Source of the DNA: Nitrospirota bacterium
GTDB lineage: Bacteria > Nitrospirota > UBA9217
Direction of reading: 5' to 3'
Length of the DNA stretch: 64,000 bases
NCBI GenBank assembly: GCA_963790205.1
Contig: CAWBNQ010000002.1
Coordinates: 32,001 to 96,000, forward strand
A program made the position numbers and the translations under genes. This document shows, in pieces, positions 3,920 to 24,975 of this stretch. The notes beneath the pieces were generated by a model. The model saw only the letters and a program-made list of their open reading frames with translations. It was not told the origin of the DNA and searched no databases. Position 1 is the stretch's first letter. Each line of letters starts with the position of its first letter.

Positions 3920-5030
3920 TACTAATACAAACGCACTAAGTAATGTTACAAAGTCGCCTGACTTTGTGCTTTGACCACGAGTCAAGCGTCCTTTGGACCG
4001 TTGCCCAGATTGCGTCAAGGTTATCGAACCACCGGTTGGTAGTTGATTCATAGCGAATCTGGCGCCATATGCGTTCCTGCATATTCAAGGCAGGCTGATA
4101 TGGTGGTAAGTACACAATCCGGAGTCGTTTATGCTTTCTGAGAAACTCCCGGATTGGGTCACCCCTATGCCAACGAGCTCGGTCAACATACAGCCAGATA
4201 GTGTAGCCACGAAGCTGGCTATAAAGGTGCCGCAGCACTTTGAGAAAACCTTCTCGGTTGCCACGTTCCGTTTGGATGACGCCGGCACGAGCCAGAAGAG
4301 GAGCCACCCAGCCGGAAACATTCAAACGTTTCTGATGCTGGCTGGTTGTCGGCACTTTCAACCGTTTCCCGATGAGCGCCCAGCCGCGGCCAAGCCGAGG
4401 GTGCAGAGTAAAACCGCATTCGTCCTGAAAAACCACAGTTTCTTTAGGACCCAGCGTTTTGAGTTTTTTTTAGGCTCCTGGCAAACTTCTTCGCGTCTTC
4501 TGCCTTTGCCTGGAGATAAACGTGATTGGCTCGCTTTAACCGATACCCAAGTTGATGCATCCAGTATTGGGCCTGACGGACTTTCAGCTTTATCCCGAAC
4601 TGGCGCTGTAAATGAGTTGCCAAAGTGGGGCCATCCCATCGAATACGATTTAAGCCGAACTTCTGGGGCGATTCCTCCAGTTGAAGCTCTAGCTGAGCTA
4701 CGATCTTAGGAGTCATCCGAACTGGACGGCCTGACTGCTTTTTCGGGACAAGGGCTTCTACTCCGTCCTTGTTTACCGCCCGCGTCCAGCGGTTTACGTT
4801 CATCCGGGTCTGGCCTAGGACTTCTGAGATCCACCCCGGTCGTTGACCCTCCATTACCAAGAGGAGGGTAGCTATCTTTATGCCGATCCAAGCTCCTGGC
4901 ACCTTCTCTGCGAGGGCCAGCAATTGCTCTTTGGACACCTTTATTGGGCTTGCAGGGGATGTTTTCATGCCCCCAGAATAACATAAAGTATGGTTAAAGT
5001 GTAACAATATTTACTGCGTTTGTATTAGTA
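3920..5030 (-). mobile_element. IS630-family insertion sequence (about 1.1 kb)
   Basis: 31-bp terminal inverted repeats including TA (3920-3950 TACTAATACAAACGCACTAAGTAATGTTACA versus 5000-5030, 3 mismatches), TA at both ends, split HTH + DDE transposase. Confidence 0.93.
3936..4968 (-). CDS. IS630 transposase in two frames joined by a +1 shift at an A8 run
   Basis: OrfA 4968-4444 is the HTH region (WDGPTL, LGYRLKR). OrfB has FQDE, VDRARWH and LPPYQPALNMQE. A8 run at 4464-4471 (T8 on +). Confidence 0.88.
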
Positions 5031-8981: not shown

Positions 8982-9296
8982 CTACTTCGCTTGCCCCGTT
9001 TGCACAATAACGCATGCCGATTCGATTATTCTCCGGAAATTCTCCTGTGTCTCCGCCCAGTCCACGATATCCACCTTGAACGGCAGATCGGATTCTCTGA
9101 AGGCATCCTTTAAATCTGCCAGTATCGAGGCGGGCATGGATTCGCTGCCCATGACTGCGAGGTCCAGGTCGGAGAAGGGTTTGACCTTTCCGGCTACCCG
9201 GGAGCCGAAGGCCCGTACTTCCCGGTCGGGAATATAACGGCGGAGGATTGCCTGGACCTCTTTCAGATCAGCGGGTTTTATGTTGAGCTCAGGCAC
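8982..9296 (-). CDS. minimal nucleotidyltransferase (MNT antitoxin, HI0073-like)
   Basis: FGSR...SDLDLAV with intact DxD, plus KVDIVD. GTG start overlaps the end of the HEPN gene. Confidence 0.9.
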   Translation of the reverse strand: MPELNIKPADLKEVQAILRRYIPDREVRAFGSRVAGKVKPFSDLDLAVMGSESMPASILADLKDAFRESDLPFKVDIVDWAETQENFRRIIESACVIVQTGQAK

Positions 9297-9708
9297 GGTT
9301 GCGTCGCTCCAGTTCCGCCAGCAGCTGGCGGACATCGTTCCGAAAATCCTTCAGAACGCTCACAATCTGTTCGGCTTTTGCCTGATCGTAGGTGTGGCTG
9401 GTGATGTTGCGTTTCTCCCGATAGTCCCGGTACCGCGCGATGTCCGCGATCAATCCGGCTTCCGCGCCGGTCCTGATCACGTCCATATAGCCCATGGTAT
9501 CTATGGCCGCCGGGTCGGCGGACATTTGTTCGAGCTGTCGTTTCAGCATTTTGAACGCCAATTCGTGGGTGAATTCGAAGGCCTGGATCGCGGCGGCGCG
9601 GAATTGCTCGCGCAGATCAGGGTCCTTTGCCAGGTCCGATGCGAGAAATTTCAAGCTCTTTTCCAGGGCTGTCAGTGCATTGCGCAAGGATGATACATCA
9701 AGCGTCAT
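9289..9708 (-). CDS. HEPN toxin / nucleotidyltransferase substrate-binding protein (HI0074-like)
   Basis: IQAFEFTHELAFK and RNITSHTY (intact R-x4-H). Confidence 0.9.
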   Translation of the reverse strand: MTLDVSSLRNALTALEKSLKFLASDLAKDPDLREQFRAAAIQAFEFTHELAFKMLKRQLEQMSADPAAIDTMGYMDVIRTGAEAGLIADIARYRDYREKRNITSHTYDQAKAEQIVSVLKDFRNDVRQLLAELERRNRA

Positions 9709-20225: not shown

Positions 20226-20700
20226 ACATCTCCGATCGTTGTTGAAGACATTACGTCAACAAATTATTTTATGTAGTATACCATAACTGCACTCATGAGA
20301 GAAGGGGAAAATTCAGGCAGTTCGACGATTGCCGCGCCGCCGAGGCAAGAGGATTGACTTTTTAGACTCACGCAAAAGAGAAAAAAATCAGACATCGAGA
20401 GCGCTTCACGGTGTTATGGGATTCCGTTCATGGATTCGTTCGAAGAAGGCGAGAGGCCGCTTCGAAATATTTCCTCTGTTTGTGCGGAATTTCGAGTCAA
20501 AAAGCAATTTATGATGTCACCCTATATTTTTAACGCGGTTCTCGCCGGATTTTAAGGCGCTTCTTAGCGGAGAATGTTATAACAATAAAATTGGTAAAAA
20601 TGTAATTTAACCATTATTTTTTGTACTTTTTTTGTTTGTGCAAAAAACGGTGTTGATAAATTGTCTAACATACGGAAAACTAATTTCTTAATCTTTTTTG

Positions 20701-20749
20701 TTGACAAAACGTACACTCTTGTTGTATATTTGTCTACGAGGTGAACAAA
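20701..20749 (+). promoter_or_regulatory. sigma70-like promoter with an overlapping imperfect palindromic operator
   Basis: TTGACA-N18-TATATT; TTTGTCTAC-GAG-GTGAACAAA at 20729-20749, just before the GTG start. Confidence 0.6.
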
Positions 20750-20751
20750 AC

Positions 20752-21318
20752 GTGCTGACAAAACTCTTCTCTTCCACGAGAGCGGAGCTTTTAGGCCTGT
20801 TCTTTAACAATCCGGATGACAAGTTCTACTTGAGAGAGATCGCACGCCACATCGGAAAAGATGCAGCGGGGATCAAGCGGGAGCTTGACAATCTGGTTAG
20901 GATAGGGCTCCTGGCAAAAGAGAAACGGGGTGTACAAAAATACTACTTCGCGAACAAAAACTCCCCCATCTTCTCGGAAATGAAAGGTCTCATATTCAAG
21001 ACCACGGGAGCGCAGGGGGCGATGAAGGCATCGCTCTCCCGGCTGAAAGGGGTCCAGGCGGCCTTCATATACGGGTCCTATGCCAAGGGCACCGAAAAAG
21101 AGGACAGCAACATCAACCTCATGGTCATCGGCCAGGCGAACATCACGGAACTGAACGACATGGTGATGAACCTGGAGGAGAAGCTGCAGCGGGAGATCGA
21201 TTATCTGGTCTTCGACGAGCAGGAATACCGGAAGCGCAAAGAATCGAAGGACCCGTTCATCCGGGAGTTGCTGAAAGGCAAGAAGATATTTCTGGTAGGC
21301 AAGGAAGATGAATTATAG
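20752..21318 (+). CDS. wHTH-MNT nucleotidyltransferase-fold protein with catalytic DxD replaced by NxN
   Basis: N-terminal wHTH (YLREIAR...KRELDNL...GLL); FIYGSYAKG...EDSNINLMVIG. Confidence 0.88.
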   Translation: MLTKLFSSTRAELLGLFFNNPDDKFYLREIARHIGKDAAGIKRELDNLVRIGLLAKEKRGVQKYYFANKNSPIFSEMKGLIFKTTGAQGAMKASLSRLKGVQAAFIYGSYAKGTEKEDSNINLMVIGQANITELNDMVMNLEEKLQREIDYLVFDEQEYRKRKESKDPFIRELLKGKKIFLVGKEDEL

Positions 21319-21793
21319 TGCGCTCAAAGAAATGGGGATCGTCGAGGAGCGGACCGCGGAAATTGCCGAGGTCATCGCGCTGGTGACCAGGGCGGAACGG
21401 GACCTCTCGACGAGCAAACTTCTGCAGGATAAAGATGAAGAGTGGGCGTTTGCCGCGGCCTACCAGGCGATGGCCCGTTCGGCAAGGGCGCTTATCCTCT
21501 CCGAAGGGTTCCGGCCCAAGGGGGTCCGCGGCAGGGACACCCATAAGACGGTGGTCACGGCATCGGGCATCATCCTCGGTGAACAGTATAAGAGCATGAT
21601 CAATAAGTTCGACCGTATGCGGAGAAAATATCAGAACTTCATGGAAGAGGCCGGCAGGATCATCTCCCGCTACGAGGCGGACCAGGCCAACAAGGACGCA
21701 GAAGAGTTTCTGAAGATCGTGAACGGCAGGATCCGGGAGAAGTACTCGCAGATGTCACTGCTGAATGATGTTCCTCAGCTTGTTTCAAGATAA
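21308..21793 (+). CDS. HEPN-fold protein lacking the catalytic R-x4-H
   Basis: AERDL...AYQAM..SARAL...GFRP...HKT HEPN pattern; active-site segment reads DRMRRKYQNF. Overlaps the MNT stop. Confidence 0.85.
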   Translation: MNYSALKEMGIVEERTAEIAEVIALVTRAERDLSTSKLLQDKDEEWAFAAAYQAMARSARALILSEGFRPKGVRGRDTHKTVVTASGIILGEQYKSMINKFDRMRRKYQNFMEEAGRIISRYEADQANKDAEEFLKIVNGRIREKYSQMSLLNDVPQLVSR

Positions 21794-21840
21794 GGCCGCT
21801 TAGGTCCGAACGCGGTATGCCGAAAGGGGGTGGACAACTA

Positions 21841-21897
21841 ATGGCAGCCAAGAAGAAGGCCAAGAAGAAGGCGAAGAAGAAAGCCAAAAAGAAGTAG
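21841..21897 (+). CDS. lysine-rich micropeptide MAAKKKAKKKAKKKAKKK (18 aa)
   Basis: GAAAGGGGGTG Shine-Dalgarno upstream, mixed AAG/AAA and GCC/GCG codons, GC hairpin downstream. Confidence 0.65.
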   Translation: MAAKKKAKKKAKKKAKKK

Positions 21898-22073
21898 TTT
21901 TGTAAGGTGTCCCCGGAGTGGGGCCCGCCGGGGGCTTGAATGCCCCCGGCGTATTTCATCGGATTAATCGGGTACGTTCCCTCTCCGGGACGAAATTCAT
22001 GCAATCCGGCATTTCGGCTTTATACGCGCATCATGACGAATCAATCCTATGATGAAAGGGGGTGAAGATTATA

Positions 22074-22130
22074 ATGGCGACCAAGAAAGCCCCGGCAAAA
22101 AAAGCGAAAAAGACCACGAAAAAGAAATAA
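22074..22130 (+). CDS. lysine-rich micropeptide MATKKAPAKKAKKTTKKK (18 aa)
   Basis: Same GAAAGGGGGTG upstream motif and same length as the ORF at 21841; followed by a hairpin and U-tract near 22178-22208. Confidence 0.65.
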   Translation: MATKKAPAKKAKKTTKKK

Positions 22131-22607: not shown

Positions 22608-22745
22608 CGAATCAAGCCTGAAATTCTGAATCCTCAAGTCTCAACAGGAGCAAAACAAGAAATTCAAATGTTCAAAACAGTTTTCTGTTTCGATCAGAGA
22701 ATTTTTTGAGTGTTGAGCCTGGGATTTGATTTTATCCTTCTATAC

Positions 22746-24975
22746 ATGGCCGACCAACCCCTGTACATAGCCTTTGTCTGGCACATGCACCAGCCCTATT
22801 ATAAGGACGATATCACGGGCTCTTACATCCTTCCCTGGGTACGGATGCACGGGATCAAGGACTACTACGACATGCCCGCGCTCCTGACCGATTTCCCCGA
22901 CATCCACCAGACATTCAATCTCGTGCCTTCCCTCCTGAAGCAGATACAGGATTACGTGGAGAACGGCGCCACGGACAAGTTTCTAGCCCTCACGCTGAAG
23001 CCCGCCGCCGAGCTCGACCAGGAAGACAAACTGTTCCTGCTCAAGAACTCCTTTATGGCGAACTGGGACACCATGATCAAGCCCTACCCTGCCTATTGGC
23101 AATTGCTCGACCGCAGGGGCTACAGTGTTTCTCCCAACGACCTGCAGAACGCGACGCGTTACTATACTACGCAGGACTATCTCGATCTTCAGGTCTGGTT
23201 CAACCTGACCTGGTTCGATCCGCTCTTTAAGAATAACGATCCCTTTCTCAAAGGGCTCATCCGGAAAGGATCGGGATTTACCGAGAACGAGAAGACGCTC
23301 CTCGATTCAGAAGCAGCGCGAGGTGATGGCGCTTATCATCCCTGAGTACCGGAAGCTTTCCGAGATGGGCAGGATCGAACTCACGACCACGCCCTTTTAC
23401 CATCCGATCCTGCCGCTTCTCTACGACACGGACCTCGCCAAGGTGGCCTCGCCGGATATCCATCTGCCGTCCAACCGTTTTGCTCATCCCGAAGATGCCA
23501 GGGCCCAGATCGGGAGGGCCGTCGAATATCACGAAAAGCTGTTCGGTTCGCGCCCCGCCGGCATGTGGCCGGCCGAGGGTTCGGTGGCCGAGGAGATCAT
23601 CCCGCTTATCGCCGACGCCGGCATCAAGTGGATCGGTACGGACGAGGGCGTGCTTGCCCGGTCGCTCGGCATTCACATCGAGCGCGACTTCGCCGGGGTG
23701 ATGAAGAACCCCGAGGTGCTCTATAAACCCTACCTGGCCGGCAAGAACGACAAACGAGTGTCCGTCGTGTTCCGTGACCATACGCTCTCGGACCTCGTCG
23801 GTTTCGTGTACTCCAAATGGGATTATAAGAACGCCGTGCATGACCTCATCGACCGGCTTCACCGGGTGCGCCGGAGCGTCGTTGACGGGTCCCATCTGGT
23901 CTCGATCATCCTGGACGGAGAGAACGCCTGGGAGTATTACCAGAACGACGGCAGGGATTTTTTCCTTTATCTCTATGAAAAACTGAGCCGGGAGCAGGGG
24001 CTCAAATGCGTGTCCGTCGGCGAGTATCTGAAAGAGCATCCGGCACAGACGCCGATCGAACGGCTTCACGCGGGTTCGTGGATCAACGCGAATTACCGGA
24101 TTTGGATCGGGCATGAGGAGGACAACCGGGCCTGGGACCTCCTCGCGCAGACGCGCGACGCGCTCGTCGAATACGCGTCGAGGAACGGCGATCCGGAAAA
24201 GACCTCGGCGAGCTCAGTCGAGGCGCTCGCCAAGGCCTGGGAAGAGATCTACATCGCCGAAGGGAGCGACTGGTGCTGGTGGTACGGCGACGACCACTTT
24301 TCCGAGAACGACGAGGAATTCGACCTCCTGTTCCGGACGCACCTCATGAATGTTTACCGCATCATCGGCCTCGACGTGCCGGACGAACTCCAGATTTCCA
24401 TTCTTCGCGAAGACCGCCAGGCGTTGCCGACGGTCGAGCTCACGGCCTTCATCACGCCGGTGATCGACGGCCAGGTGACGAATTATTTCGAGTGGCTTCC
24501 CGCCGGGTTCTACGACGTGAGCCAGGGTGGCGGCGCCATGCATCGCAGCGCCACCATCATCACGCACATCTACTATGGGTTCGACCTGAAGAACCTGTTC
24601 ATCCGCCTCGACCCGAGCGGAAGTCTCAAGGACGAGAAGGTCGCGGACCTCGCTTTTTTCATTAATTTCTTGAATCCCAAGGGTCTGGATGTGGAGATTC
24701 GCGTCCTGCCCCAGGAACGGCGCGTGAGCGCGGCCCTCTTCCGGGGAGAGAACGGCGCGAGGACGCAGGCGGGGGAGATCAATACCGTGGCTGCGAATGA
24801 GATCATCGAGCTTGCGGTCCCCTTCGACCTGCTCGGCGTTAAACCGAACGACGAGGTGCAGATATTCGTGACGGTGGAGCGCTCGGGCTCGGAGGTCGAA
24901 AAATGGCCCTACCGCGGCTATATCCAGTTCAAGGTCCCCACCGACGACTTCGAGGCAATGATGTGGCAGGTGTAA
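22746..24975 (+). pseudogene. GH57 glycoside hydrolase (amylopullulanase-like), split by a 1-nt insertion
   Basis: WHMHQPYY in the first frame; TPFYHPILPLL, WPAEG, LDGENAWE and EGSDWCWW in the second. Frame change at about 23304-23307 (GATTCAG). Could be a sequencing error. Confidence 0.8.

Follow-up and report, generated by a model that had tools for sequence, protein, structure and literature searches.

A gene pair at 20752..21793 of the window, the whole 64,000-nucleotide stretch of Nitrospirota DNA analysed here, encodes a winged-helix protein with a degenerate nucleotidyltransferase domain (MNT*) and a degenerate HEPN protein (HEPN*), and this degenerate pair is maintained as a conserved single-copy module in two phyla. 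We regard domestication of the pair and loss of its canonical sites as highly probable, and both proteins are predicted from their sequences to be catalytically dead. The role that we favour, with moderate confidence, is that the dead class II pair serves as an autorepressor that would set the dose of co-transcribed, histone-H1-like micropeptides encoded immediately downstream. We infer the inactivity, DNA binding, co-transcription and clamp binding that enter into this reading, as well as the translation and role of the peptides. The features concerned are as follows.

20652..20668, no strand assigned: box O1, predicted upstream operator, an imperfect palindrome GTTGATA-AAT-TGTCTAA
20700-20716, + strand: box O2, covering the -35; predicted autoregulatory operator
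20701 (TTGACA) and 20725-20730 (TATATT), + strand: sigma70-type promoter, spacer 18, within the inverted repeat 20700..20737
20721-20737, + strand: box O3, predicted autoregulatory operator
20752..21318, + strand: MNT*, wHTH-pseudo-nucleotidyltransferase, 188 aa, GTG start
21308..21793, + strand: HEPN*, pseudo-HEPN of class II / HEPN-T, 161 aa, PF05168
21749..21763, + strand: Q148-M-S-L-L152, a beta-clamp-binding-like motif near the HEPN* C-terminus
21795..21816, + strand: short stem GCCGC...GCGGT with variable loop, just 5' of the peptide ribosome-binding site
21841..21897, + strand: micro-ORF 1, 18 aa, MAAKKKAKKKAKKKAKKK, Shine-Dalgarno GGGGGTG, histone-H1-tail-like
21926..21951, + strand: intrinsic-terminator-like hairpin, 10-bp GC, between micro-ORFs 1 and 2
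22074..22130, + strand: micro-ORF 2, 18 aa, MATKKAPAKKAKKTTKKK, with its own GGGGGTG Shine-Dalgarno

Active-site replacement and distribution of the pair

An earlier note on this DNA had described two full-length, overlapping ORFs among core genes (rhlB, ftsB-like), and this description holds: the ORFs overlap by 11 nt, and Pfam places an rhlB-type DEAD helicase upstream and a DivIC/FtsB protein downstream. MNT* combines an ArsR-like winged helix (residues ~1-85, with the helix GIKRELD) with a Pol-beta fold (~90-188). Its Pfam matches are to Polbeta/NTP_transf_2, with weak HTH matches in addition, and Foldseek aligns its structure model (pLDDT 88) with MNT antitoxins as well as with ArsR repressors. 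The motif residues are G108-S109-x10-N120-I-N122 and D150. Both metal-binding aspartates had been reported as asparagines with AAC codons at 21109 and 21115; the sequence bears this out, and N120 and N122 are present in 30 of 30 family loci, with AAC and AAT codons both in use. Among 120 close database homologues, NxN occurs in 107, 11 carry S/G/D or K variants and two were unparsed, so that N120 is not strictly invariant. DxD is found in 136 of 150 distant wHTH-MNT representatives, while the third acidic position, D150 in the window, is Asn in 125 of these 150 parental proteins, which makes the parent itself non-canonical. The wide wHTH-MNT family (P0121-P0270) thus combines DxD with Asn at the third site, and the window's family shows the reverse, NxN with Asp. 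In MntA, a change from DxD to ExE is enough to abolish adenylylation (PMC7641770).

The best fold match of HEPN* is AF0298 (2hsb, E 1.4e-3). RRKYQNF had been taken to stand where the RNase motif R-x4-H should be, which was the wrong motif, since this HEPN class lacks R-x4-H: pairs with a PF05168 HEPN fall in class II, where RX4HXY is absent (PMC7641770), and AF0298-type HEPN-T proteins instead carry a His upstream (PMC3710099). Because intact kin carry R-H-x3-Y, the lost motif is instead Y108-QNFM-E113, three residues later than RRKYQNF. In the intact-kin set, defined as the 120 best homologues of an intact relative, H79 and R108 are each present in 120, and H109 and Y113 each in 119; the 93 distinct clade HEPNs retain H79 in 14, R108 in 10, H109 in one and Y113 in none. 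The site is degenerate, though in another register than the one proposed, and the window copy retains H79. R105 persists in 92 of the 93, the window copy included, and the basic RMRRK face is retained in HEPN* as well. As the parent has Asn at its third site and class II pairs were without biochemistry as of PMC7641770, 'loss of activity' is a term without a measured baseline.

MNT* was matched in 34 of 36 family genomes (one match being a contig-edge fragment and two frameshifted), with full-length copies at 81-94% identity and HEPN adjacent. The class I pair near 9 kb in the same window served as a control: intact, with SDLDL as stated earlier and also R-NITS-H-T-Y, it matches 4 of 22 family genomes. 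It lies at 8982-9708 on the - strand, and its neighbours encode a LexA-like S24 peptidase and a PD-(D/E)XK protein. Measured against the window copy, dN/dS has a median of 0.053 for MNT* and 0.086 for HEPN* (28 of 29 comparisons valid for each). In the phylum, 110 of 251 genomes match a divergent orthologue, almost always with a single hit; they cover 17 of 27 Nitrospirota families, and MNT* is single-copy in most genomes of those 17; an alignment-based scan recovered the clade in Methylomirabilota as well. The 131 clade loci comprise 30 family loci, 9 further loci, 47 from the phylum search and 45 of the 79 loci from the alignment-based scan. This count excludes duplicates, another 32 Nitrospirota loci that are mostly redundant, and six outgroup paralogues. 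The paralogues were first separated by motifs and low identity; five were then placed outside the clade by the tree, and the sixth, L043, is itself degenerate and absent from the tree. The L043 locus (4215-4740) is a separate, solo wHTH-MNT type whose degenerate site (GD, IxD) is possibly an independent inactivation, and a palindrome GAGTAAT-GTT-ATTACTC lies upstream of it.

GS together with DxD was found in 0 of the 131 clade loci, and no close orthologue was seen to combine DxD with an intact RNase motif. The nucleotidyltransferase states of the clade are GS/NxN/D (33 loci), GP/TxD, GS/DxN, SM/PxL and GT/PxR, with the replacements depending on lineage. On a 70-row tree (quick search, midpoint root), a branch with SH-aLRT 97 separates the 33 degenerate rows from the rest, and an intact WOR-1 pair, L169, lies just outside them. 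HEPN is present in 84 of the 131 loci and absent in about 47; 12 HEPN-less rows are nested within the degenerate clade (SH-aLRT 95), beside HEPN-bearing Thermodesulfovibrionia, and the loss of HEPN is probably one evolutionary event rather than a set of independent tests. Conservation of MNT* across the clade is higher in the N-terminal part (mean identity 0.70) than in the nucleotidyltransferase part (0.54), and G40, K42, R43, E44, L45 and D46 of the recognition helix are each present at 95% or more. A further protein, P0246, consists of two tandem copies of the clade's winged helix and is without a nucleotidyltransferase domain.

The domestication without decay that had been suggested is supported by dN/dS far below 1 for both genes, NxN in 30 of 30 family orthologues, single-copy occurrence, near-universality in its lineages and membership of one clade. 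Host-like codon usage had been listed with the same suggestion; the usage is indeed host-like (49th and 67th percentile), but as evidence of domestication it fails, since the 9-kb pair is equally host-like (35th and 54th percentile) and codon usage does not discriminate between the two.

Predicted operators and lysine-rich micro-ORFs

The promoter ahead of the pair, with an accompanying operator, had been noted before; the promoter was found, and the boxes around it are operator-like in sequence. Three 17-bp boxes are conserved in 30 of 30 family loci, with an O1-O2 distance of exactly 31 bp in all 30, and we infer that they are operators. O1 is the best genome-wide match to the position weight matrix (PWM) and was not seen outside the window's family. 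O2 and O3 together form the inverted repeat GTTGACAA-N22-TTGTCTAC, with a consensus right arm TTGTCYAC, an N22 arrangement that occurs nowhere else in the genome. Among 84 HEPN-bearing loci, 58 have repeat arms that match at 6 or more of 8 positions (53 of them with a gap of 22), against 0 among 46 HEPN-less loci, so the promoter-spanning repeat is gone where HEPN was lost; its left arm includes the -35 consensus, which is expected of a promoter anyway. This pattern would fit a HEPN* dimer that spaces two winged helices ~30 bp apart, a reading that rests on one HEPN-loss event. Features of an autoregulatory wHTH repressor, namely the conserved helix and palindromes in its own promoter, are present in HEPN-bearing lineages, and L169, with the same recognition helix, has GTTGA-type palindromes over its promoter. 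The suggestion that the pair is a DNA-binding transcription regulator gains from the recognition helix being the best-conserved part and from the operator-like boxes over the promoter. A genome-wide regulon was considered and rejected: a genome PWM scan with the three boxes gave 11 matches above 13 bits, three of which were its own sites, and none of the 8 others, for example before kdp-like and nuoA-like genes, scored above its own O1/O2.

The likely regulatory target was overlooked in the earlier note. Micro-ORFs rich in Lys and Ala lie downstream of the pair in all 125 loci whose downstream sequence extends for 200 nt or more (detected automatically in 122 and by eye in the remaining three), and behind outgroup paralogues in 0 of 6. 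In total, 205 micro-ORFs have lengths of 12-150 aa (median 19), a composition of 52% K, 29% A, 10% T and 4% P, and start codons ATG (170), GTG (29) and TTG (6). A strong Shine-Dalgarno match precedes 196 of the 205, but the detector required at least 25% Lys and a Shine-Dalgarno-like word, so that the figures for Lys-richness and Shine-Dalgarno matches are partly built in. Ala and Thr use all four codons. Micro-ORF 2 is present in 28 of 30 family loci, and the two others end at contig ends. In most Nitrospirota lineages, the MNT* cassette is convergent with lpxC; in the window's family lpxC has moved off, and the peptides stay with the pair when lpxC synteny breaks.

The stem GCCGC...GCGGT was seen in 32 of 32 family loci inspected (24 of 32 by strict regular expression). 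A universal RNA hairpin before the peptide was rejected as a candidate, as z falls below -2 in 28 of 124 loci with a median of -0.65, and the stem is treated as a minor feature. A terminator-like hairpin follows the last peptide in 79 of 122 loci. RNA reads from four of 20 runs, none of the 20 with more than 0.20 of the sequence words and the four consisting entirely of contigs, cover MNT*, HEPN* and peptide stretches of relatives. An 883-nt contig spans MNT* into HEPN*, a 358-nt contig spans the end of HEPN* to peptide 2, and summed depth peaks over 21758-21919 in all four runs. We rejected these reads as evidence of expression level or of a single transcript: contigs do not allow genes to be ranked, DNA may be present in the libraries, and Lys-rich repeats of other organisms map to the same stretch.

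Similar peptides also occur in other contexts. Among seven metagenome matches to the peptide pattern, six stand alone in other contexts, which indicates that the micro-ORFs do not need such a regulator. The loci L246-L251 have stand-alone Lys/Ala micro-ORFs of 14-15 aa with strong Shine-Dalgarno sequences in two other genomic contexts, and they suggest that the peptide class reaches beyond Nitrospirota and Methylomirabilota. Two longer ORFs of G000 carry comparable tails: one (C3:340510-341110, +) has a long Lys/Ala-rich H1-like tail and an N-terminus that we take to be GroES-like, and the other (C2:179006-179354, +) has a short, Cys-containing zinc-ribbon-like head followed by a long Lys/Ala-rich tail. 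Further along the window, at 22710-24975, a GH57 glycoside hydrolase gene carries a frameshift that breaks it into ORFs of 211 and 550 aa, where five relatives have one 734-aa ORF; the frameshift is possibly an assembly error.

We also looked at genomes without MNT*. In two of five such genomes, the same peptide is convergent on lpxC behind a gene for a coiled-coil and HARE-HTH protein, and in the other three no peptide was found beside lpxC. The HARE-HTH gene matches 63 of 251 phylum genomes; these belong to four families, all of them devoid of MNT*, and the best 30 HARE-HTH loci (all one family) have the same peptide and lpxC downstream in 30 of 30. The gene (L211:2653-3165 on the - strand, L214 and L216-L245) is uncharacterised and single-copy in the four families, and a Lys-rich ORF of 12-34 aa with a TTG start comes after it. 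The HARE-HTH protein was rejected as an MNT* homologue, having no significant BLASTP match, and its promoter is covered by a different repeat, AAGCAATGCT / AAGCAAGCATGCTT. The occurrence of two unrelated winged-helix proteins in one slot points to winged helix plus peptide, rather than the enzyme folds, as the function. The replacement is probably a single swap and not a series of independent tests.

Proposed autorepressor, clamp-like motif and alternative readings

Under the reading that we favour, the MNT* winged helix would bind GTNGAYAA half-sites covering its own -35 and -10/+1 region, and the dead nucleotidyltransferase domain together with the HEPN* dimer would act as a scaffold that holds two winged helices ~30 bp (three helical turns) apart. 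MNT*, HEPN* and the micropeptides would share one transcript, the Lys/Ala-rich peptides would behave like H1-tail proteins in binding DNA (or polyphosphate), and negative feedback would hold these polycationic peptides at a tolerable level. Against this proposal stand the terminator between peptides 1 and 2, with an internal promoter or processing site as a possibility, and the absence of the spaced inverted repeat from HEPN-less lineages.

The HEPN* tail may additionally dock on the beta sliding clamp. Within the C-terminal 22 aa, the pattern Q[LM]x[LF][FLI] is found in 75 of the 93 HEPNs of the clade, as against 6 of the 120 intact kin and 5 of 2604 long ORFs from the genome, and a looser clamp pattern occurs in 87 clade HEPNs, 44 intact kin and 53 background ORFs. 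The S, L and L codons of QMSLL show synonymous variation, and MutS uses QMSLL. When HEPN* residues 122-161 were modelled in complex with the organism's own DnaN, the score was 0.46 against 0.00 for the best control, with contact agreement of at least 88% and partner pLDDT of at least 56. Of 157 solved complexes 116 reach the mark for this score, as do 2 of 215 mismatches, but only 18 of the 157 reach it at 0.60 or less, along with both mismatches; clamp-peptide complexes have already been solved, and resemblance to them may account for the pass. Intact kin likewise conserve Q148 and L151 (116 and 92 of 120), and the helix of the HEPN* monomer model runs through residue 153, across the motif, so the motif may be structural. 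The modelling thus gives weak support to docking of the HEPN* C-terminus on the beta clamp. In a more speculative extension, which we think possible though doubtful, HEPN* on the clamp would titrate the MNT*-HEPN* repressor off its operator in step with the number of DNA-loaded clamps and so tune a hitherto unrecognised class of nucleoid-condensing, histone-H1-like peptides of 12-26 residues. If true, this would be a replication-coupled chromatin governor, with other Nitrospirota meeting the same task via the unrelated HARE-HTH protein.

An alternative is that the winged-helix protein and the peptide constitute one nucleoid-wide chromatin or transcription factor on separate chains, in effect a split H1. 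The sharing of one slot before the same peptide by two unrelated winged-helix proteins would fit this, as would the family identity of 81-94%, which is very high for a mere autorepressor, and a peptide composition like that of the H1-tail-type domain of AlgP (PMC9239181). The promoter of each winged-helix type is nevertheless covered by a conserved repeat peculiar to that type, and the peptides are also found alone, so we consider this alternative unlikely.

The earlier note's own version, a non-catalytic regulator of unlinked genes that senses nucleotides or RNA, appears less likely again. A pocket of GS plus N-N-D, retained in 33 of 33 loci of the window's family, could bind nucleotide without metal, and the conserved R105 and basic RMRRK face of HEPN* would suit such a role. 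However, the nucleotidyltransferase part as a whole is 90% conserved within the family, so the conservation of NxN is not special, and in other lineages the GS loop and both acidic positions have been replaced in many ways, so nucleotide sensing cannot be the general function. RNA sensing by HEPN likewise cannot be essential, since about 47 of the 131 loci do without HEPN, and the PWM scan gave no convincing regulon.

A toxin-antitoxin pair that still works by non-canonical chemistry (sequestration or an alternative HEPN site), with the peptides as unrelated neighbours, is very unlikely. It would draw on the view that HEPN-T proteins may use an upstream His and a basic residue (PMC3710099), for which the window has H79 and R105, and on the MntA D39E/D41E variant, which still binds its toxin (PMC7641770). 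Against this, H79 is present in only 14 of 93 clade HEPNs, the 'toxin' has been lost while the 'antitoxin' persists as a single-copy gene, the distribution is vertical rather than patchy and the peptide link holds in 125 of 125 loci. Lastly, recent decay or chance is extremely improbable given dN/dS of 0.05-0.09, full-length ORFs in two phyla and the use of both Asn codons.

Relation to known systems

If this interpretation is correct, the pair would be a clear example of a toxin-antitoxin module that lost both enzyme activities and turned into a core regulator inherited vertically in two phyla, and the tree would show the successive stages: intact pair, dead pair, loss of the toxin gene. It would also bring to light a class of H1-tail-like ORFs so small that they are readily overlooked, conserved in most Nitrospirota families sampled and in Methylomirabilota; these are candidate nucleoid proteins in organisms with little-studied chromatin. 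Domestication of MNT-HEPN modules is itself a known idea (PMC3710099), and our literature search, with most subscription papers outside its scope, found no paper on the MNT*-HEPN* module or its micro-ORFs.

The closest relatives are class II HEPN/MNT pairs (PF05168 with a PF01909/PF18765 MNT), which have the same domains, gene order, overlap and fold. The window pair belongs to their wHTH-fused subfamily, and the closest intact example is L169 from candidate division WOR-1, an intact class II pair that also has the recognition helix, the GTTGA-type promoter palindromes and a C-terminal Q-x-x-L. Compared with class II, the window clade has lost DxD (so that GSX10DXD is absent) as well as the H and R-H-x3-Y; it is single-copy and vertical rather than patchy or mobile (34 of 36 against 4 of 22 family genomes), it is followed by Lys/Ala micro-ORFs, and a large sub-clade does without HEPN. 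The type VII pairs of class I, HepT/MntA (Shewanella SO_3166/SO_3165 and the Legionella pair), share the two folds and the GS-x10 spacing, and the patchy 9-kb pair of the window is of this class. In contrast to class I, the window pair is without RX4HXY, DxD and the acceptor Tyr (0 of 93), its HEPN belongs to PF05168 and not to PF01934/PF08780, and its MNT* has an added winged helix.

GlnD/GlnE-type nucleotidyltransferase-HEPN fusions, kanamycin nucleotidyltransferase and MtlR share MNT-HEPN or HEPN ancestry, and their HEPN is inactive and regulatory; the described fusions retain an active nucleotidyltransferase, and MtlR does not bind its operator (PMC3710099). The window clade differs from these domesticated HEPNs in having lost both sites, with the DNA-binding helix as its conserved part. 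Among beta-clamp binders, for which the consensus is QL[S/D]LF or QxxLF (PMC12309361), HEPN* shares the C-terminal pentapeptide Q-x-x-L-[LF], although its position 5 is usually Leu and not Phe. In composition and in AKK/PAKK repeats, the micro-ORFs are like the AlgP/PhaF tails of Pseudomonas and apparently Hc1/Hc2 of Chlamydia, and KPAA peptides from the H1-tail-like domain of AlgP bind DNA (PMC9239181). The longer clade peptides (60-150 aa) resemble tails of the AlgP/PhaF/Hc1/Hc2 type, whereas most are free peptides of 12-26 aa encoded behind a winged-helix gene, and their likeness to H1-like proteins is compositional.
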